Source: a virus
Length of the DNA stretch: 64,000 bases
Strand: one strand, 5' to 3'
Virus record (IMG/VR): IMGVR_UViG_3300037882_004127
Coordinates: 1-64,000 of that record
In this document: piece after piece, positions 2,930-63,483 of the stretch
Layout of the letters: every line of letters starts with the position of its first letter
Position numbering within the stretch: the stretch's first letter is position 1
Position numbers and translations under genes: made by a program
The notes under the pieces: generated by a model
What the model was told of the DNA's origin: nothing
The model's database searches: none
The model's input: only the letters and a program-made list of their open reading frames with translations

Positions 2930-3111
2930 AAAATAAATCTAAAAAGAACAAAATTAAATGAGCATATCTTTAATCCGTGACTCTGCCATTCCTGCACGGC
3001 TTCAAGTTGATATTTAGCTGAGAGCGACCCGCTCAATATCCCAAAATTTCAGCTAACCCCAATAATCATGGGCTATTTTACTTTTAAGGGAAAATTTGAA
3101 AGAACTCCTAT

Positions 3112-3140
3112 ATCATCCTAAATTTCACCTAACATGTCAA
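3112..3140 (-). promoter_or_regulatory. sigma70-like promoter upstream of the tRNA cluster
   Basis: TTGACA-17 nt-GATGAT on the minus strand. Confidence 0.55.
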
Positions 3141-3281
3141 CTCTTTTCTCAGAAAAACCAACCTCGCGGTGAGATAACCACTTTCTCACACATTGCATTC
3201 TTTGTCAGATCGTCTCTTTTATTAGCTTGCGCTAATGGGTGTTTTGGACTACGCGAGTGCTTTCTTGTTGCGAAACGAGGT

Positions 3282-3515
3282 TTAATCAAATATAAACCCG
3301 CGCCGACCTTGAACCCTTACACAAGGATCATTACCCGGAATTTCCGCGCGATCAAAGTCCCCATCTTCAGGGCCAAGGTTGTAATTCCACTCCTTAGTTG
3401 CCTTTTCAATAAAGGCCGCTTCCTGTTCTTTGGTGGTCACGAAAACCACATCTAGATTTGAATATACGATATACATTTTTGTTTTGGTGTTTACATTCCC
3501 TTTTCTTCGTGGCAA
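3282..3515 (-). CDS. hypothetical protein
   Basis: Probable true start at MYIVYSN. Confidence 0.55.
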   Translation of the reverse strand: MPRRKGNVNTKTKMYIVYSNLDVVFVTTKEQEAAFIEKATKEWNYNLGPEDGDFDRAEIPGNDPCVRVQGRRGFIFD

Positions 3516-3984: not shown

Positions 3985-4128
3985 GCCAATAGATAATTGA
4001 ACATTGATTCAATTAGCAAGAGGTTTAATTTGGCATCATAGATTTGTTGGATGTTCATATATTTTGTTCGGTTTAAGTTAATTACTAAAATGAGGTTATG
4101 TGATTTTGGCGCGGGAGTCAAGAGCTTT

Positions 4129-4392
4129 TTAAGAATTTCCAGTATTCCCATAAGGCGACAATTTAAGTTTGCGGCGAAAACGCGACACGAAATCTTGATG
4201 CTGACTTTCTGAGCAGATTAAGTACCACTGATCACTCTTATTATTGTCGGCCCGATAATAACCAATGACTGTTTGCGCGGGGCTAATTAGTTTGCCGAAG
4301 AAACGTGTTTCAGGTTGGCGCTCAACACTGAAGACGGCTTCGTTTTCAATGTCAAACTCGCAAGTTAATTCATTGTAGTTAAAGTTTTTCAT
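4129..4392 (-). CDS. hypothetical protein
   Basis: ORF packing. Confidence 0.7.
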   Translation of the reverse strand: MKNFNYNELTCEFDIENEAVFSVERQPETRFFGKLISPAQTVIGYYRADNNKSDQWYLICSESQHQDFVSRFRRKLKLSPYGNTGNS

Positions 4393-9369: not shown

Positions 9370-10023
9370 TTAATACTCGTGCGCGGAAGGTTTATTCACT
9401 CTGATAAAATACGATGTTTCAACAGGAAAGTCAAGTCCCGAAACGTCGCAATGATTAGTTTCCCACTGAATCAAAGAAGACTCCCCTCGTGGAATCTTAT
9501 ATTTCGGGCGAATTTCATCAATGAATGCCCACGCGCCCTTAAAATCTTTTTTCGCGCAGAATTTATGCACCTTTTTAGAATCAACTTTATTCAGGGGATA
9601 ATCCTTATATTTAACAAATCCCTCAATTTCGGGCAAGTTATCCCCGAATGGCTCTGAAAAGTTGGTTGTTGAGCCCCATAAGCCACCATTTCGTTTCACG
9701 GATAAGTAATTATCAATAATCTTCTCAACCTGATAAGCCACAAACCCATCGCCCGCCTTTTCGTTATGAACCCCCCATGAAGCACTTGTGTGTTCAGGGA
9801 AATAAAATTCGCGCGGTTTATTTTCTTGAACGGCCTGATCGACAAATTGTTTCCTGATAAAGGATTGAATGGCATCGCGGCGGTCATGATCTAAGTTAGA
9901 GCCGCCAACGAATTCTATCATGTAATCAAATTGGCCTAGTTTGCCACGGCAATACATTTCGCAAACATTTTTAATAACGGTGGCCTGCTCCTCGGTGATT
10001 AGAAGTTTTATTTTATCGCTCAT
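9370..10023 (-). CDS. hypothetical protein
   Basis: 217-aa ORF. Confidence 0.8.
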   Translation of the reverse strand: MSDKIKLLITEEQATVIKNVCEMYCRGKLGQFDYMIEFVGGSNLDHDRRDAIQSFIRKQFVDQAVQENKPREFYFPEHTSASWGVHNEKAGDGFVAYQVEKIIDNYLSVKRNGGLWGSTTNFSEPFGDNLPEIEGFVKYKDYPLNKVDSKKVHKFCAKKDFKGAWAFIDEIRPKYKIPRGESSLIQWETNHCDVSGLDFPVETSYFIRVNKPSAHEY

Positions 10024-22256: not shown

Positions 22257-23591
22257 GAAAAGGAAACTCTCGAATTTATTTGAGAGAGGAGTTTTCGCAT
22301 AAAAGGTTAAAAATTTTCACTGTATGAAATAAAATAGACAAAATTGGTGTATTGAATTATAATCAATAAGCTAACCCGTGCCCAACTTAACCTACAAGGC
22401 AGAATTGCTTTTCCAAAGTCAAGAGGATTTTGGGAAAATTCTTAATGTGTTAAAGGCTGAGCAGCAAGTATTTAACGAAGCGTCCAAAATCCATTATGGA
22501 GACGGTTCAAAACGAAAAAATAGCATTGTTGAGCTTCACGCTGGATTTTATAGCAAATTTAGGTTAGCTCATCCTGAAATTCCATCACAAATTGTTATTC
22601 GTGGGGAACAAGCATGCTTATCGGCTTACCGTTCAATTAAATCCAATAAACACGAAATTCATAAGGCAATAGAGAAGAAGAATTTAAGCATTAGGCTAGA
22701 TAAAAGAATTTATACTTATAAAGAAGACAAAATTAAATTAACCTCGTTAGACAAGCGTGTCACCGTAGATTTTAAGCGCTACCCAAAAATCGAAGAAATG
22801 CTAAAATCTTATGAATTTTGCGATCCACTTCTATTTGAACGAGACGGTAAAATCTGGATAGCTCTTACATTTAAAGTTCCCGCAAAACCAGAATCTATTG
22901 AAAAATTAGCCGTGGGCATAGATTTGGGTGTGAATCGAGTAGTTGCTACCTCTGAGGGTAAAATATTTCAGGATAAAAAATTTAACAAAACAAAAAGAAA
23001 ACTTCGATTTTTAAAGCGCCGACTCCGGTCAAAGGGGACAAAATCGGCAAGACGGCACTTAAAGAAGATCCGCCACAAAGAGGCAAATCGAAATAATAAT
23101 CAATCTCATCTATTAGCGAACACCATTATTAGCTCGACCAGCGCAAATGTTTTGGTTTTGGAAGATCTGACGGGTTTAAAAAATCCCAAGAGTAAGAAAA
23201 AGAAAATGAGTAAGTCTAATAATAATAAAATTGGGCAAGTCCCTTTTGCTAGACTTAGAGAAATTTTGACCTACAAGGCACCCATTTATGGGAAAACGGT
23301 TTTACTTATTGACCCAAAATTCACGAGTCAAATTGACTCAAGAACAGGGTTAAAGGATGGGTTAAGAAAAGGCAGTAGATATTACTGTTCGGACGGAGTG
23401 ATATTGGATGCAGATTTAAATGCGTCAATCAATATCACTAAACGTTCAAAACTCCCCGTTTCACTCGGTAGAAATATCGAGACTTACGGGCAGGCTGTTG
23501 TCACCCAGCCAATTGTATTTAAGTCGTTTAATTCTAAGTAATTAGAATTTTATGCATTACAAACACTCGAATTTATTCGTGGGTAGGTGAC
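22257..23591 (+). mobile_element. non-autonomous IS200/IS605-family element (tnpB only), inserted 3' of TTGAT
   Basis: The LE and RE hairpins share CTCGAATTTATT. Excising 22257-23591 restores an in-frame minus-strand ORF. Confidence 0.85.
22378..23541 (+). CDS. tnpB: TnpB RNA-guided endonuclease
   Basis: The RuvC triad GIDLG, LEDL and DADLNA is intact. Confidence 0.93.
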   Translation: MPNLTYKAELLFQSQEDFGKILNVLKAEQQVFNEASKIHYGDGSKRKNSIVELHAGFYSKFRLAHPEIPSQIVIRGEQACLSAYRSIKSNKHEIHKAIEKKNLSIRLDKRIYTYKEDKIKLTSLDKRVTVDFKRYPKIEEMLKSYEFCDPLLFERDGKIWIALTFKVPAKPESIEKLAVGIDLGVNRVVATSEGKIFQDKKFNKTKRKLRFLKRRLRSKGTKSARRHLKKIRHKEANRNNNQSHLLANTIISSTSANVLVLEDLTGLKNPKSKKKKMSKSNNNKIGQVPFARLREILTYKAPIYGKTVLLIDPKFTSQIDSRTGLKDGLRKGSRYYCSDGVILDADLNASINITKRSKLPVSLGRNIETYGQAVVTQPIVFKSFNSK

Positions 23592-23611
23592 CGAGCTATA
23601 CCATTCGTGGT
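23440..23611 (+). ncRNA. TnpB omegaRNA (predicted guide 23592-23611)
   Basis: Stem GGCTG/CAGCC; its loop GTCACC pairs with the terminal GGTGAC. The 5' boundary is approximate. Confidence 0.75.
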
Positions 23612-23657
23612 CTTCTGATAAATCTTGAAGTTTCTTTAAAGTGGATAGATAGGCCAT
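23592..23657 (-). pseudogene. IS-interrupted duplicate N-terminus of the 20628-22247 methyltransferase
   Basis: MAYLSTLKKLQDLSEDHEWYSS resembles ELNLLKDSLEDYEYYPT. Confidence 0.7.
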
Positions 23658-23687
23658 TTATTTAATTTAACAAAACAAAAGTAAACA

Positions 23688-23942
23688 TCAAGCCTTTTTA
23701 TCACCAAAACCAATAAATTTAAATATTTTCAAAAACGTTGCCTCATTCCCGGCCCAAGTCATTCCTCCTCCACCATGTTTATCATCATTATGATTACTCC
23801 AAGTGATTATTTCCCCTTCAGTTAAAACGCCCCCTTCCTCCTCTTCGCCACCAACTTGCATTACTGTATGCTCAACGCCTTTATGATTTTCCGCTGTTAA
23901 GGCAAACCAACGGGAACCTTGTTTAATGTTTTTATTATTCAT
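23688..23942 (-). CDS. hypothetical protein
   Basis: ORF packing. Confidence 0.7.
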   Translation of the reverse strand: MNNKNIKQGSRWFALTAENHKGVEHTVMQVGGEEEEGGVLTEGEIITWSNHNDDKHGGGGMTWAGNEATFLKIFKFIGFGDKKA

Positions 23943-41810: not shown

Positions 41811-42956
41811 ATGTCAGTCTTAACCTACAATGTCGAATTGATTCCGAAGAGTCAAGAAGATTTCTTAAAAATTGAGAAAATTCTTGATGCGAATCGCTTT
41901 GCGTGGAATAAAATATCTAAGGTTTATTACGGGCTAGGGAAAAACACGGATAGAAAAGATTTGCATAAACAAACTTATTTCCCAATCCGTAGAGAAAAAC
42001 CAGAAATTCCCGCACAAGTTATCATTCGTGCTCAAAATGACGTAAGGGCGGCATATAAATCAGTAGTTAGCAATAAGCACAAAATTGTTAAACCGATAGA
42101 AAAGAAGAAATTAAGCATGAGGCTGGATAAAAGGCTTTATAGGCTTAAGGAGGGCTTAATATTTCTGACCACTTTAGAAAAAAGATGTGAATTTACATTT
42201 AAAACATTTGAAAAATTTAACGAACTAAAAGCGAAATATGTTTTCGGCGACCCTTTAATTTTTATCCGTGGCGGGAAACTTTATGCGGCGATTTCATTTA
42301 AGATTCCAGAAATTCCAGTTAGTAGCACCCCATTGGCAGTTGGAATTGACCTAGGAATAAAAAATATCGCTGCAACATCCGATGGGAAAATCTATACAGA
42401 TAAAAAATATTTGAAAGAAAAACGGCAACTTAGATTTCTGAAAAGAAAATTAAGAGCACGCAAAACAAAATCCGCTCGAAAACATCTAAAGAAAATTCGG
42501 CGAAAAGAGGCTAATCGCACCAAGAATTTTGCTCATCATTTGGCTAACAAAATTTTAGATACAGAAGCAAATGTTATCGTTTTAGAAAAATTAAAAGGGA
42601 TTAAACAGAAAATCTCTAAAAAACGAGGAAAAGCGTTTAATAATAAATTTTCGCAAATACCAATTGCGATGTTAGCGACGATCATATCATATAAGGCACC
42701 CTTAAAGGGGAAAACGGTTCGTTTCGTGAATCCACAAAATACCAGTCAAATTGACCACAGAACGGGTCAAAAAGACGGAGTCCGCAAGGGTAATATCTAT
42801 CTCGGAAAAGATGGAATTTTACTTCATGCGGATATCAATGCTGCAATAAATATTGCAAAACGTTCTGAACTCCCAATACTAAGCGGAAACGCAAGTTATT
42901 GGCAAGCCGTTGTCAACCGGCTAATCGTTGGAAATAGTTTAAGCCGAAAGGTTTAA
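41811..42956 (+). CDS. tnpB: TnpB RNA-guided endonuclease
   Basis: GIDLG, LEKL and HADINA. The start MSVLTY aligns with MPNLTY of the 22378 TnpB. Confidence 0.93.
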   Translation: MSVLTYNVELIPKSQEDFLKIEKILDANRFAWNKISKVYYGLGKNTDRKDLHKQTYFPIRREKPEIPAQVIIRAQNDVRAAYKSVVSNKHKIVKPIEKKKLSMRLDKRLYRLKEGLIFLTTLEKRCEFTFKTFEKFNELKAKYVFGDPLIFIRGGKLYAAISFKIPEIPVSSTPLAVGIDLGIKNIAATSDGKIYTDKKYLKEKRQLRFLKRKLRARKTKSARKHLKKIRRKEANRTKNFAHHLANKILDTEANVIVLEKLKGIKQKISKKRGKAFNNKFSQIPIAMLATIISYKAPLKGKTVRFVNPQNTSQIDHRTGQKDGVRKGNIYLGKDGILLHADINAAINIAKRSELPILSGNASYWQAVVNRLIVGNSLSRKV

Positions 42957-43025
42957 ATTAATTCGTTTTCGACAAGCCTCTATCGCTTGCGATGAGGTAG
43001 TTGACGCAAATTTTTAATCAATTCT
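42860..43025 (+). ncRNA. TnpB omegaRNA (RE ends at 43005; predicted guide 43006-43025)
   Basis: Stem AGCCG/CGGCT; its loop GTCAAC pairs with the terminal GTTGAC. The 5' boundary is approximate. Confidence 0.75.
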
Positions 43026-43038
43026 TTAATTTGGTCGT

Positions 43039-43377
43039 TCACTGGTTTAATTCTTTCTTTAATTGTTCAAATAATTTCTTTTTCCACTCAATCTCTAAAT
43101 TTGCGCGGCTCTTCTCCGCAAGCTCTCGTTGTTCAATCTCCTCCTTAGTCTCGGGGCGCTCATATTTAATGGAGTAAATCAAAACGCCCGCACCATAAGA
43201 TTCGGTGGCGCTAATATGCAAATAGGCAGACTGGCGAAATTCCTCCGGGATTGAGAGGAGCTTACCATTCAACCAGTTGATATGTTCCGCTAAATTTGTA
43301 GGGAAAGTGTCGAGCCAAGAATTGCCCTCATCGTAAATTGTGATTGTTTTATTCATTTTTTTTAAGTTCAACTTCAA
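43039..43377 (-). CDS. hypothetical protein
   Basis: RPETKEE motif; ORF packing. Confidence 0.7.
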   Translation of the reverse strand: MKLNLKKMNKTITIYDEGNSWLDTFPTNLAEHINWLNGKLLSIPEEFRQSAYLHISATESYGAGVLIYSIKYERPETKEEIEQRELAEKSRANLEIEWKKKLFEQLKKELNQ

Positions 43378-59193: not shown

Positions 59194-59654
59194 AGCTCAA
59201 AAATATTCCCCACAACCTCATATGCGTAATCATTCTTATGCAGCCAAGCGCTCGCCGCCCCGCTTTTCGCCCAATCCCCATTTAGCCAGACATATTTCAA
59301 AATGAAGGCGCAAAATTCCTCATCATATTTAACTTCAGCTCGCGCATAAATTATGTCGGGGCTTGGTAAGGGTTTTGTAACATCAACCTCATAAACATTC
59401 TCGCCAACTTTGGTCTTAGTAAAATTTAATGGGGAAACGTTTAGTATGTCACCTTCGTAAATTTCGCGCCCGTTTAGATCAGATAAACCCGTAAATTGTT
59501 GAATAATAATTTTGGGGAAATCTCCATCCGCCGAAATCAACCTATCCTCCCTCTGGTATCCCGCATTATGGTTAGACACATTAAACCAAGCAAATCCGTT
59601 CTCCTCCCACTCTTTCTTCACACGATTCCAGACGCGAAATTTAATGGTTCTCAT
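59190..59654 (-). CDS. YopX-family protein
   Basis: IKFRVW, QFTGL.D.NG.EIYEGDI and VVGNIFE. Confidence 0.9.
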   Translation of the reverse strand: MRTIKFRVWNRVKKEWEENGFAWFNVSNHNAGYQREDRLISADGDFPKIIIQQFTGLSDLNGREIYEGDILNVSPLNFTKTKVGENVYEVDVTKPLPSPDIIYARAEVKYDEEFCAFILKYVWLNGDWAKSGAASAWLHKNDYAYEVVGNIFEL

Positions 59655-60163
59655 TACAACTTTTTACAATATTTCCTAAGTTTTGTCAAGCCTGTTTTAG
59701 AGCCTAAATTGAACAACGGAATCCCTTTATCTTTACAGACCAAAATTCCGGTGCAAGATCCGCCAACCTCTTTGCCCTCGGGCGTCCAACAAACAGCCAC
59801 GGTGGAAGGAGTTTCGTTATCTGAACCCAAAATTAATGCTACGTTGCGAGCGTGGAAAATTCGATGATTCAATTTGAGTTGATCCCAATGACCAACATAT
59901 TTTGACGCCGCTTCCCAATTTTCGGGTGTATGTAAAATTCCATTGTAATGATTATTGTAGCCTTGCCACGGTAGATAAAGCTCAACTTTGGAATTGGCGA
60001 CTTTTTTGAACCCGTTGAGCCCAGCGTCATCTATTCCAATGGCTCCTCCAGTGCGTAAAACCCATCCTTTCTTGGCGAAAAATTCAGCGATTTGGCCAAT
60101 TTTGAGTAAGTCATCACCTGAAAATCCTTCGCGCGAACCGAAAATTGAAATATATTTAGGCAT
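59654..60163 (-). CDS. DprA/Smf-like SLOG protein
   Basis: GSRE, RTGGAIGID, LPW, ARN and WTP..GG. Confidence 0.85.
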   Translation of the reverse strand: MPKYISIFGSREGFSGDDLLKIGQIAEFFAKKGWVLRTGGAIGIDDAGLNGFKKVANSKVELYLPWQGYNNHYNGILHTPENWEAASKYVGHWDQLKLNHRIFHARNVALILGSDNETPSTVAVCWTPEGKEVGGSCTGILVCKDKGIPLFNLGSKTGLTKLRKYCKKL

Positions 60164-60254
60164 TGTTAACTTTATAATGAAATTATAAGGGTTTCGGAAG
60201 ATGAGTCAAACTAAATGATTGACCATTTGACCGAAATTCCCAATAATCTCATCA

Positions 60255-60461
60255 GTGGCTCTAAACCGATTTTCAATTCCTAAAAGGTTAACCCCCTCCC
60301 AAATCAAAAGTATTTGTGAAAAGTTTAACCTAACTGATACCCAGTTCAGAGAGGGGACGGTTGGCCGCAAGGTAAATTTTCAATTATGCGCCTACATTTG
60401 TATCCTCTTAGGCTATAAAGATTGGTATCCAAAATATTGGCCCAAAAGAATGAATAATTGA
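60255..60461 (+). CDS. hypothetical protein
   Basis: GTG-start ORF after TTGACC..CAATAAT. Confidence 0.5.
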   Translation: MALNRFSIPKRLTPSQIKSICEKFNLTDTQFREGTVGRKVNFQLCAYICILLGYKDWYPKYWPKRMNN

Positions 60462-60489
60462 AAATAATTTGATTTCCCGCATAAAATTA

Positions 60490-60498
60490 GTGTATACT
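60490..60498 (+). promoter_or_regulatory. GTGTATACT promoter upstream of the putative large ncRNA
   Basis: Same motif as the other + strand promoters. Confidence 0.55.
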
Positions 60499-60504
60499 TA
60501 TTTA

Positions 60505-60990
60505 AGGTCTAATAAAAGCGCGAACAAACGCTACAATTACGCCAAGCTATCGCACAGGTCCTACCACGACGCAATTCGTGCCTGTGAATAGACCACTTTT
60601 TATTCAGACATTATGAATAAATGGGCCGCGAGAGTGACGCGGGATAAAAAATCGTTGAGGTAATACCTTAACACACCAGTTAAATACCAAGCTAACCGCG
60701 TTTCTTCCTAACAAGGATAGAATAGAACGAGATTGTATCAAATTTGAATGGGGCTAATTACTGGAGCCTGTCTCGCAAGACTTAAAAGTAGTTCGATGGC
60801 GAAATTAAGTTGCGCTTCACGTTTGGGCAAATGCCGGTTAATCCCGGTAATCCCCGGTTTTCGTAAGAAGATTTCCGATAATAGAGCGTGTTTGGGTTAG
60901 CCGACCCAATGTTGTCACTTTGTCTTTTGGCTATACCGAACTGAGTTCCCAAAAACATCAAGCCTATTTACGGATTTTCCGTTTCTAGGC
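60505..60990 (+). ncRNA. putative large structured non-coding RNA of unknown class
   Basis: ~490 nt with no ORF of 60 aa or more, many stems and GNRA-type loops on the + strand, and an upstream promoter motif. Confidence 0.65.
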
Positions 60991-60996
60991 AGTGTT

Positions 60997-61200
60997 GTGT
61001 CTATGCGTAATAAATTACGTCAAGCTACCCGAAATAAGCCCCGGCCCCTAAAGTGGCCAAGCTTAAATACTTATGAAAAACCTCCGATCATTTCCGTAGG
61101 AAATAAAGGCGAAGCCTTTTCTCTGATTAACGGGGAAAATAAAAAACACCCAGAATTCAATCTAAGTGTTTACCTAACCAAGGAATTAAGAGCTATATGA
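60997..61200 (+). CDS. basic hypothetical protein
   Basis: ORF directly after the structured region. Confidence 0.5.
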   Translation: MSMRNKLRQATRNKPRPLKWPSLNTYEKPPIISVGNKGEAFSLINGENKKHPEFNLSVYLTKELRAI

Positions 61201-61201
61201 T

Positions 61202-61393
61202 CTAGCACAATAAATTATACGCCCCAACCTTATATCCATAGCCCCATGCCAAACTAGCCGGAATTAAAAACACAACAGACAACCAATCCCGAGTATCATT
61301 TCTATGCGCGCACAATCCCGCCGCAAAGGCCAGCCAAACACACATAATCAGAGCTAGACTTTCTACGAATAAGCGAAAAGTAGATTTAATCAT
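61202..61393 (-). CDS. small membrane protein
   Basis: Two hydrophobic helices. Confidence 0.6.
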   Translation of the reverse strand: MIKSTFRLFVESLALIMCVWLAFAAGLCAHRNDTRDWLSVVFLIPASLAWGYGYKVGAYNLLC

Positions 61394-61613
61394 TTATGCT
61401 CGTTAGTTTCCAAAATTTCGCCGCAATAAGCTCTTCCTGTTCTTCCTCGCTTAGCTCCCCGTTTCCCGCTCGTGCGGCATATGACCAAGCATCCGCATTC
61501 TCAATCAACTTCCTTAACCCATCGTTATTCCCGCACACACAGAATAAGTTAATCTTATGGAGAAAGTCCTCGTAAACCTTAATTTTCTCCTGATCTGTTG
61601 GGATTTTAATCAT
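61386..61613 (-). CDS. hypothetical protein
   Basis: ORF packing. Confidence 0.7.
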   Translation of the reverse strand: MIKIPTDQEKIKVYEDFLHKINLFCVCGNNDGLRKLIENADAWSYAARAGNGELSEEEQEELIAAKFWKLTSIND

Positions 61614-61893
61614 TTTCGGCCACCTTTCTCATCAACTCGTTAAATTCTTCTCCATATCCGTTGATAATATATTTTGGGTTAGATGTTGGGTCTCGCCCTT
61701 CGTGAATGCAAGTAAAATCCTCAATAATATCATTTAATGGGACATCAAAATCAATTTGCGCGATTAGTTTACCATCTTTCTTGATCTCATGCCAGTATTC
61801 ACCTTTTTTATATCGGCAATCCCATCCAACCTTATAACCCAACGATTCAAAATATCTAATAACTTCTTGGTTTTGATGTGTCATATTAAGCAT
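61606..61893 (-). CDS. hypothetical protein
   Basis: ORF packing. Confidence 0.7.
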   Translation of the reverse strand: MLNMTHQNQEVIRYFESLGYKVGWDCRYKKGEYWHEIKKDGKLIAQIDFDVPLNDIIEDFTCIHEGRDPTSNPKYIINGYGEEFNELMRKVAEND

Positions 61894-62247
61894 CCCTAAG
61901 TTTCATTAACCGCGACCGTTCCTCAAGCAACTCGTTCAATCGTTTATACCATTTCGTTTTATCCTCGTTTGATCGGGCATCCATCCAACACCCGCGCGCC
62001 ATGGATAAAGTCTTGTCAAGTTCTTCAATTAATTTAACGTAATCTTTGTTCATGCAATTTTTAATGTTACTTTATCCACAATAGGAATCTGTAGCCCAAT
62101 ACTCGCGGCGTCAAGTGATTTTCCGACACCAATTTTCTCCCAACCAGTTTCAACGTGACTTAATCGTTTGAAAATAACCTTTTTCCCGGAACCAAAAGAT
62201 AACAATCCGCGCCGTTCTTCCAAACTTACAAAAATCCAAATAATTAC

Positions 62248-63483
62248 TCATTTTGACTTTTTGTTGGACTTCTGCTTCATCAAGGAACTAATCGGATTCG
62301 CAAGCGAATCTAATGAACTTCCCTCTCCACAGACTTTAATTCCCGCAGAACTTGCGGTATTTTTGTTATGCATATCGTTTAGATAATAGTTTTTCAGGTT
62401 AATAGCGACGTTGAGATCGCGGTCGGTAGTTGTATTATCGTCATGTATAGTCGTTCTGTCCGCCAAAGTCAAGGAATTATTTATTTTTCCTGATTTGTGG
62501 TCCAGTTTTGAACTGGGATAGAAGCGATTCGCGATAATCACTGTCCGACCATACCATTTTGCCTTATATTCAATCATTCGACGAAACGCATAAAATGACG
62601 CATCGCCAATAGACTGAGCTAATTTATGATTTTTCATCATATTAGAAACAGATAAATCCTCTAAAACAATAACTTGGTTATCGTTTACTATTTTAGTGGT
62701 TGCTTTGTGTATGGCGTCTTTTCTAATATTTGAAATTCTATAATGTAATTTTGCTAATTTTTTCTTTGCTTTCTCTCTGTTTTTAGAACCTTTCTTCTTT
62801 TTGGATAATTGTCTTTGTTTGCGTTTTAGTTTCTTTAAGTTCTTTTTTAATGCCTTGGGATTTTCAAAAATTGTTCCGTCTGAGCAGGTGGCCAGAACCT
62901 TAATTCCCAAATCTATACCGACCGCTTCATTTGCGGGTGTGGGTGCGACCTTTACCACATCTTCAATCAGGCACGAGACAAACCACTTTCCCGCCCTACT
63001 ACTAACTGTTACCGATTTAATCTCAGCATCTAGCGGAATATAATCTGATTCTTTCAATTTTACTTCGCCAATTCTAGGCAATTTAATATGGTTTCTATCT
63101 GAGATGTAAATTGAACCATCTAATTTGAATGATTGTTTTTCGTTTTTCTTAGATTTGAACTTCGGAAAACCCTTTTTACCTTTAACTTTTTTCTTGCAAC
63201 GGGCGAAAAAGTTCTTAAATGCAATATCACAATTTATCAGGGCTGATTGCGGAGCAGATTTACTTGAATTATACATCCAACCAAGTTCGGATTGCTTTAA
63301 CTTATTCAACTCTCTATGTAACTCTATTGCATTTGGGATTTTCTCTTTTTTCTCAAACGCCTCCTTCTTCTTCGCTAACGCCCAATTATAAGCAAATCTC
63401 GCACAACCAGCATGTTGCGATAATAAAGTTCGTTGCTTATTATTAACGTCTAATTCTATTTTATAAGCACGAAGAAAGTTCAT
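62248..63483 (-). CDS. tnpB: TnpB RNA-guided endonuclease (IS607-like)
   Basis: HAGCARFAYNW, GIDLG, LEDL and DRDLN; the right end resembles GTAAGTTTGGAAGAACGG (~62212). Confidence 0.93.
   Translation of the reverse strand: MNFLRAYKIELDVNNKQRTLLSQHAGCARFAYNWALAKKKEAFEKKEKIPNAIELHRELNKLKQSELGWMYNSSKSAPQSALINCDIAFKNFFARCKKKVKGKKGFPKFKSKKNEKQSFKLDGSIYISDRNHIKLPRIGEVKLKESDYIPLDAEIKSVTVSSRAGKWFVSCLIEDVVKVAPTPANEAVGIDLGIKVLATCSDGTIFENPKALKKNLKKLKRKQRQLSKKKKGSKNREKAKKKLAKLHYRISNIRKDAIHKATTKIVNDNQVIVLEDLSVSNMMKNHKLAQSIGDASFYAFRRMIEYKAKWYGRTVIIANRFYPSSKLDHKSGKINNSLTLADRTTIHDDNTTTDRDLNVAINLKNYYLNDMHNKNTASSAGIKVCGEGSSLDSLANPISSLMKQKSNKKSK

Follow-up and report, generated by a model that had tools for sequence, protein, structure and literature searches.

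What occupies a gene-free, hairpin-dense gap in the record of an uncultured phage? The question is raised by positions 60490-60995 of the stretch of DNA analyzed here (the window), which comprises the first 64 kb of a 77.9-kb IMG/VR virus record with a completeness estimate of ~36%. These positions lie among genes that are almost all on the minus strand, within the record's largest non-coding gap (60164-61201, 1038 nt, by the codon-score criterion over all 77.9 kb). An initial annotation had read them as a ~490-nt non-coding RNA that might work with the small plus-strand open reading frames (ORFs) beginning at 60255 and 60997. We propose that the gap probably harbours a new structured RNA element, with no match in Rfam, coupled to a small, helix-turn-helix (HTH)-like gene at 60255-60461 (ORF68) in a mobile phage module.

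Folding of the stretch and conservation of its core

No ORF of 60 aa or more had been reported in 60490-60995, and this is correct, the longest reaching 59 aa (minus strand) and 50 aa (plus strand). Codon usage, scored after training on the long genes of the 77.9-kb record, gave no sustained signal in any frame between 60450 and 60975, and ORFs inside 60600-60960 scored ~0.01-0.04 vs. 0.18-0.43 for real genes. Six-frame translations of 60164-61201, with stops masked, were scanned with hidden Markov models (HMMs) and matched no Pfam or PHROG family, which argues that the stretch is not a recently decayed known gene. Pseudogene remains were dropped as a candidate on these six-frame scans and the negative codon scores.

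The observation from which the initial annotation started was confirmed overall. The motif GTGTATACT is at 60490-60498, every stem that had been listed is present in the sequence, and CCAAGCTA occurs exactly twice in the window, at 60542 and 60687. Little was left of a proposed preference of GNRA-type loops for the plus strand, as there is a single GUAA loop, on a stem of only 3 bp. The minimum free energy of the plus strand is -140.5 kcal/mol (z -2.69, with 0/100 dinucleotide shuffles as good), and the minus strand has a z of -0.74 against the same kind of shuffles. In a fold scan of every 500-nt segment of the 77.9-kb record, on both strands and with energy regressed on composition, the plus-strand segment starting at 60551 ranked 5 of ~980 (z -3.8). 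The four better-ranked segments are the 3′ ends of plus-strand TnpB genes, whose TnpB domains were confirmed by Pfam. OmegaRNA scaffolds are expected at the 3′ ends of TnpB genes, and these over-folded ends are presumably such scaffolds that Rfam did not detect here.

The RNA had been assigned to no recognized class, in agreement with Rfam 15, where cmscan of the whole window at gathering thresholds gave no hit. At E up to 10, nothing relevant was found on 59500-62500, on 60480-61010, or on the homologue in a second phage described below. GOLLD, ROOL, OLE, raiA and the other catalogued large RNAs gave no covariance-model match in Rfam 15. The stated absence of RNase P, tmRNA and group I core motifs also held, with no match in Rfam and no tRNA or tmRNA found by ARAGORN in the window, and no group II intron was matched by Rfam in the stretch. 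Two resemblances were examined and dropped: a tag-like frame, ANKRYNYAKL, that suggested a tmRNA and was without ARAGORN or Rfam support, and a GAGCC...GUUC likeness to group II intron domain V at 60765-60795, which had no Rfam match. Vector contamination, raised by a 13-nt identity to the start of pUC lacZ-alpha, was dropped because the flanks are unrelated. The stretch does not lie at the 3′ end of a same-strand tnpB gene, the nearest tnpB (62248-63483) being on the minus strand and 1.2 kb away, and neither a TnpB domain in any frame of 60164-61201 nor similarity to other TnpB ends was found. As for a type III toxin-antitoxin system, we found no ~36-nt tandem repeats and no toxin-like neighbour; the sole tandem repeat reported by Tandem Repeats Finder is a 3 x 10-nt micro-repeat at 60830-60859.

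Conservation of the element became visible through ORF68, a 68-aa plus-strand gene with a GTG start. A phmmer search of 1.84 billion representatives followed by a profile search returned eight relatives at 43-91% identity (P0035, P0036, P0037 and P0039-P0043), making a family of nine. P0042, at 91% identity, is on an 11-kb JGI contig and P0043 on one of 78 kb. All nine members start with M-x-LNRFSI and share an invariant W57, Y58, P59, K60, Y61, P63 and M66 (WYPKYxPxxM). When the family alignment was searched against viral contigs, one locus was found, L115. Its phage (G007) is complete at 191 kb, with terminal repeats, and the ORF68 homologue there (P0035) is at 3001-3270. Differences between the window and L115 fall 26/16/50 by codon position, a third-position bias, and by this pattern ORF68 is a real conserved gene under purifying selection. 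Its AlphaFold2 model has four helices (pLDDT 91.6) and is weakly like XRE or lambda-repressor HTH proteins: almost all of the top VIA-align rows are XRE-type (YdaS, ImmR, HipB, HigA, P22 c2, 434), with Z of only 3.4-4.6, and Foldseek E-values are ≥0.7. Searches for the family in GenBank phages with tblastn found none, and 401 Patescibacteria genomes gave chance-level matches only.

A non-coding segment downstream of ORF68 is shared by the two phages. In L115 it begins 35 nt past the stop of the ORF68 homologue, vs. 42 nt in the window, and L115 3305-3388 matches window 60503-60594 (the core). The local alignment of the core has a z of 20.6 against dinucleotide shuffles, vs. 6.8 for ORF68 DNA. 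Identity is 88% over the first 42 nt and ~75% over the three-way junction described below, vs. 54% for ORF68 DNA, suggesting the non-coding core is under stronger constraint than the gene beside it. A covariance model of the core (R1) gave scores of 118 and 98.8 bits; an exact-pattern scan of viral contigs with the junction motif recovered only L115's contig plus chance matches. ORF68 and the core are both present in this record (G000) and in G007 and both absent from related records G001-G004, two of them complete. By its DprA-like protein G007 is more distant from this record than G001 is (42% vs. 68% identity), and its module has a different neighbourhood and orientation from that in the window. 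This joint, patchy presence, and the different setting in a distant phage, suggest the pair is an accessory module that is mobile between phages.

On the plus strand the core (60503-60594) folds into a three-way junction. P1 is GGUCUA/UAGACC in the window and GGUCCG/CGGACC in L115; P2 (AGCG/CGCU) carries an A-rich 8-nt loop; the 12-nt single-stranded joining segment J2/3, ACAAUUrCGCCA, is conserved between the phages; and P3 is CACAGG..CACGA/UCGUG..CCUGUG in the window. In L115 the corresponding parts of P3 are CACAA/UUGUG (P3b) and CGGG/CCCG (P3a), the latter sharing two bases with inner P1 pairs. All 17 unambiguous pairs of the junction are kept in both phages, with compensation in P3a, P3b and inner P1. 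A further hairpin, P4 (60596-60624), of 8 + 2 bp with a U/U internal loop, follows between a conserved CACUU and UGGG. L115 has P4 in identical register at 3395-3420, where UUUAUUCA/UGAAUAAA becomes UUGGUAAA/UUUACCGA through four compensatory pairs and one one-sided change, with none broken; 100% of its cells are paired, vs. 35-59% in slid registers, and hairpins of ≥8 bp start at ~0.3% of positions in these genomes. Taking P1-P4 together, every pair is kept in both phages. The two-sided changes comprise one in P3b, one or two in P3a/inner P1 and four in P4 (6-7 compensatory changes in total), with a single one-sided change from A-U to G-U, and 100% of cells are paired in the two sequences vs. 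13-59% with the 3′ partners slid.

Substitutions outside the stems are confined to loops and junctions. Four segments are near-invariant between the phages: the 5′ AUAAAAG, the loop of P2 (GAAnAAA), J2/3, and the CACUUUU that follows P1. P4 has two conserved U-G pairs at its base that would be C-A mismatches if read on the opposite strand, and in P4 and P9 (a hairpin further 3′) there are three one-sided changes that turn G-C or A-U into G-U or the reverse. The fold z of the core is -3.38 on the plus strand vs. -1.26 on the minus strand, and together with the U-G pairs and the G-U changes this indicates the plus strand. A homologue that kept a short reading frame instead of the pairing had been named as evidence against an RNA, and L115 has the opposite: the pairing is kept, and the 40-codon ORF that lies over the core (60469-60591) stops after 17 codons, with 2/7 changed codons synonymous. 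As far as two aligned sequences can tell, purifying selection acts on the element's pairing and on particular single-stranded bases, and the element is genetically linked to ORF68.

Extent, candidate promoters and setting

The length of the RNA proposed in the initial annotation, ~490 nt, holds in part. By alignment with L115, homology appears firm for 60503-60625 and probable for 60626-60782, and 60783-60996 is unalignable. We consider it somewhat more probable than an even chance that an unclassified structured RNA is encoded here on the plus strand; it would start at 60503 and extend as far as 60625 at the least, probably reaching ~60782, and be followed by a variable tail that ends near 60996. 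The probable continuation (60638-60782, plus strand) is collinear with L115 3446-3609 and has three helices. P5 is CGCGG/CCGCG in the window, enclosing an 8-bp hairpin at 60654-60672, and GGCGG/CCGCC in L115; P9 is GGGCU/AGCCU and GGGCU/AGUCC, respectively, with a 9-nt loop in both; and P10 is GUCU-CGCA-AGAC and ACCC-CGCUA-GGGU. The spacing from P5 to P9 is identical in the two phages (55 nt), and the three helices have four two-sided and two one-sided changes with none broken.

The variable tail (60783-60996) is hairpin-rich on the plus strand, with extended hairpins at 60884-60948 and 60954-60996 (pair probabilities 0.9-1.0), and 60780-60930 is covered by a freshwater metagenome fragment at 98% identity. 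The micro-repeat noted above, ~3 copies of AATCCCGGT(T), gives alternative CCGG/CCGG hairpins in the tail, and an exact-pattern scan of viral contigs for the CCGG repeat was empty. L115 is also ORF-poor and hairpin-rich to ~4100, after which come a C-rich tract and the promoter candidate of the next gene; the tract, C-rich and G-poor at 4050-4100, lies just before that candidate (4112-4140) and might be a Rho-utilisation-like site. A unit of 490 nt is plausible as a transcript, judging from the sequence, with conservation seen in its 5′ quarter to half only.

The two ORFs that had been thought to work with the RNA fared differently: that at 60255 (ORF68) is a real gene that co-occurs with the core, and that at 60997 is without a homologue. 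The latter (ORF67; 60997-61200, plus strand, 67 aa, or 65 aa from the ATG at 61003) is an orphan and a doubtful gene of uncertain membership in the unit, with a weak codon signal and no homologue in 5.8 billion protein clusters or in viral contigs. A related contig has a 1-nt deletion at 61132 inside ORF67, and its substitutions are without third-position bias. ORF67 is not counted in the conserved unit. With respect to a riboswitch or 5′ leader, ORF67 thus offers no conserved gene to serve, and L115 has no related downstream ORF. ORF67 is basic, and an analogy with lambda N and nut was dropped, there being no boxB-like pentaloop and no homologue. The sequence AATTACGYCAAGCTA occurs exactly twice in the window, at 60535-60549 in J2/3 of the core and at 61013-61027 at the start of ORF67. 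The second copy is preceded by a hairpin of its own (GCGUAA-UAAA-UUACGU) and is not found in L115; the two copies are direct, not complementary. A drinking-water contig (X2) tracks the window over 60995-61126 and then continues into unrelated sequence, a mosaic junction that falls before the minus-strand terminator-like hairpin described below.

Consensus scans placed candidate promoters before both parts of the module. A sigma-70-like candidate, TTGACC-17-AATAAT (60219-60247, plus strand, 10/12), lies upstream of ORF68, and L115 has TTGACT-17-AATACT upstream of its homologue. For the RNA there are two overlapping plus-strand candidates at 60458-60498, TTGAAA-18-TAAAAT and TTGATT-18-TATACT. 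They include a conserved -10-like box, GTGTAnAnT, at 60490-60498 (GTGTAAAAT in L115), which is 5 nt from the core in the window and 6 nt in L115. Three exact ATTTTCAATT boxes lie inside or just after ORF68, two direct (about 60269-60278 and 60376-60385) and one inverted (60456-60465), so that 3/5 exact copies in the window fall within this 200-nt span. The inverted copy shares positions with TTGAAA, the -35 of one RNA promoter candidate, and the corresponding place in L115 is taken by a perfect palindrome, ATTCTAGAAT. Going by these positions, it is possible that the boxes are operators, which ORF68 may bind.

The gap is bounded by two minus-strand operons. On its left is a DprA-like/SLOG gene (59654-60163), served by a minus-strand promoter candidate, TTGACT-16-TATAAT (60182-60209, 11/12 in the consensus scan), and on its right is a 63-aa gene (61202-61393), followed by an intrinsic-terminator-like hairpin with a T run (61144-61171) that ends the convergent operon. 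From the positions of this promoter candidate and this hairpin, the minus strand appears to be left untranscribed over roughly 60210-61140. The 63-aa ORF has a low codon score (0.14), is hydrophobic and two-helix-like, overlaps the stop of the upstream gene with its start, and is probably a small membrane protein.

Relatives reached through the record's genes are metagenomic phages of 170-310 kb, and near-identical short fragments were found in two DNA runs, from freshwater and drinking water (151-nt contigs, small shares). In the closest relative by DprA-like protein (L002 of G001; 68% identity, complete), one unrelated 96-aa gene replaces the gap and three small genes, and so the locus seems to be a hypervariable spot. 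With the 1-kb gap as a DNA query there was no match in INPHARED phages, elsewhere in its own genome or in related records G001-G005. As queries, the DprA-like gene reached only relatives without the element, a 75-aa neighbour gene reached distant phages with other gene contexts, and a 95-aa gene and both small plus-strand ORFs, taken singly, found none in viral contigs. Cumulative GC skew has no inflection at the element's position.

The fold scan and the TnpB genes gave some further observations. The most over-folded 500-nt segments of the record are 1-500, 23126-23750 and 42626-43125 on the plus strand, all at TnpB 3′ ends, and 1-480 covers the C terminus of a fourth TnpB, which the window edge truncates. 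Two gaps of G001 (loci L106-L114), at 9429-10003 and 168243-168794, are over-folded as well (z about -3 to -3.9). The minus-strand TnpB at 62248-63483 has a copy, L026, on a 4.8-kb contig binned to a Patescibacteria metagenome-assembled genome (MAG), at 88% protein and 84% DNA identity. The same contig matches the record at 64805-65018 (75%); it probably belongs to a related phage and was mis-binned, rather than being a host clue. A 57-aa ORF downstream of this tnpB (62050-62223) is probably omegaRNA, not a gene.

Competing readings of the element

The reading we favour, and consider probable by a modest degree, is that the stretch encodes a functional plus-strand structured RNA that forms a two-part accessory module with ORF68. 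Such an RNA would be transcribed from the conserved -10-like box directly before the core. ORF68 may bind the operator-like boxes over the promoter's -35 and thereby gate RNA synthesis, and the RNA may use J2/3 and the A-rich loop to act on a nucleic acid, of host or phage, or on a protein. Its role would be an accessory one, in host takeover, defence or counter-defence rather than core replication, as the patchy distribution and the hypervariable, moron-like spots point to. These details of gating and effector are much less certain than the module itself. The novel phage RNA of the initial annotation survives in this form, with the missing Rfam match and the compensated pairing in the homologue in its favour; its full length and its tie to the ORF at 60997 do not.

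Several points weigh against this reading. Excess folding by itself is not convincing, as non-coding gaps of related phage G001 also reach a z of about -3 on this scale. The covariation comes from two sequences, including one full homologue, and shuffle controls were powerless (111/500 and 54/500). The exact fold of the core is ambiguous: two L115 bases are claimed both by the two inner P1 pairs and by a P3a pair, and the 5′ arm of P1 also pairs with J2/3 (GGUCUAAU/AUUACGCC), an alternative that is likewise compensated (U-A to C-G). That change is the only substitution inside the otherwise invariant J2/3 block, and the two pairings open to the P1 5′ arm have almost equal energies in the window; the alternative could be a genuine switch or coincidence. 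Past 60625, similarity to L115 is no better than in shuffles (z 1.1), and a single-sequence model of 60595-60785 (R2) misses L115, also when filters are disabled. L115 has a poor -35, and a terminator scan detected no plus-strand terminator in the window. ORF68 as an HTH-like DNA binder is a weak assignment from structural modelling and a lead only, with a Z of 4.6 at best; no Pfam model matches ORF68, and Pfam HTH_3 and related models at E up to 10 gave no match in the ORF68 family bar one member, which weakly matched the HTH domain of Tnp_P_element (E 0.043). A search for complementary target sites found none, the second copy of the J2/3 sequence being a direct one.

Some of this evidence would fit a cis-acting leader, either an HK022 put-like antiterminator or an attenuator with P1 and the alternative pairing as its two states, with read-through into ORF67 or antisense transcription into the convergent operon. 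The core comes right after the conserved -10-like box, has stem-loops within its first 120 nt and a hairpin-rich region downstream, and its mutually exclusive GGUCYR pairings are both compensated as well as close in energy. There is also the conserved CACUUUU after P1, together with a hairpin of L115 (3377-3394) that resembles a terminator. We nevertheless think a leader unlikely: no conserved plus-strand gene lies downstream, ORF67 being an orphan, the next plus-strand ORF of L115 has its own promoter candidate ~700 nt away, the window is without a canonical terminator after P1, and put RNAs are two stem-loops of ~70 nt and not a three-way junction. It is quite unlikely that the core is a structured 3′ untranslated region of the ORF68 mRNA, which would serve in termination or message stability, or offer the ORF68 protein a binding site on its own message. 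Identity of ~75-88% that includes long single-stranded segments exceeds what a terminator or stabiliser needs, a conserved -10-like box stands between ORF68 and the core, and structured non-coding sequence runs 400-700 nt past the core. This has to be set against the near-fixed distance from the ORF68 stop on the same strand, the constant co-occurrence of the two, the weak internal -35 in L115 and the U-run after P1, which favour such a region.

The position in the record's largest non-coding gap, the AT-rich left part, the clustered repeats (ATTTTCAATT three times, AATTACGYCAAGCTA twice), an adjoining DNA-binding-like protein and some excess folding on both strands could suggest that the element works as DNA, as a replication origin, a packaging site or an ORF68 operator array whose hairpins form in single-stranded or cruciform DNA. 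However, neither G001 nor G004, the closest complete relatives, has the element, which argues against a core genome function, and the compensated pairing includes G-U pairs that are valid on one strand only. Given also the strand-asymmetric fold z and the lack of a GC-skew inflection, a DNA element is in our view very improbable. We give the least credence to a stretch without a function of its own, which would be a recombination remnant, or a gene for a short peptide, carried along with ORF68. The region is indeed hypervariable, with a different gene in L002 and the X2 mosaic junction at 61126, the 3′ 370 nt cannot be aligned with L115, and a 40-codon ORF overlaps the core. Still, the core is more conserved than the adjacent selected gene, substitutions fall in loops or are compensated in stems, and the overlapping frame is truncated in L115 without a synonymous excess, while no protein family was matched in any frame.

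The structured RNA paired with ORF68 could also be part of something larger. Tentatively, and with considerable doubt, the whole transcript of 500-800 nt may represent a new class of large ornate phage RNA, with a conserved 5′ core and a fast-evolving multi-hairpin body. Such an RNA might be controlled by or assembled with ORF68, as a mobile accessory pair among large freshwater phages, for example in RNA-based defence or counter-defence.

Comparison with known structured RNAs

If the other seven relatives of ORF68 also carry the core, the element would define a new RNA family with enough members for a covariation model. It also indicates that a gene-free, hairpin-dense gap, used as a criterion, can recover real elements in uncultured phage genomes.

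Each of the better-known structured RNAs resembles the element in some respects. Three-way-junction riboswitch aptamers share a compact junction at a (here predicted) transcript 5′ end, as well as covarying stems and invariant nucleotides in the junction, but the element has no Rfam riboswitch match and no conserved downstream ORF to regulate. TnpB omegaRNAs are comparably structure-rich in the same scan, and the genome is rich in mobile elements, with four TnpB genes or fragments in the window. Unlike omegaRNAs, the element is away from any tnpB 3′ end, has no similarity to TnpB ends and contains no decayed TnpB frame. HK022 put RNAs are also non-coding stem-loop RNAs of a phage, found right after a promoter (here a candidate one). 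They have operons downstream to read through, whereas the element has a three-way junction plus a hairpin over at least 120 nt and no conserved gene after it. The CI RNA of P4 and the c4 immunity RNAs of P1 and P7 are small structured phage RNAs that are processed out of a leader and act by way of exposed single-stranded loops, in regulatory modules of mobile elements. In these respects they are similar, but the element has no Rfam C4 match, and no complementary target sites were found for it.

GOLLD and ROOL, for which cryo-EM structures are available (PMC12286853), are the nearest in kind. Like them, the element is predicted to be a large, multi-helix non-coding RNA of a phage or prophage, found by its structure, in which a conserved part stands beside variable domains. 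It differs from them in having no covariance match at E up to 10, in the smaller size of its conserved part (120-280 nt), in not lying beside tRNAs, and in having a small HTH-like gene dedicated to it. GOLLD is also present in lake metagenomes. To our knowledge, very few large structured phage RNAs have been described, all without an assigned function and none with a defined protein partner. With its protein partner, compact core and clear module boundary, the element paired with ORF68 should be more tractable than these known large phage RNAs.

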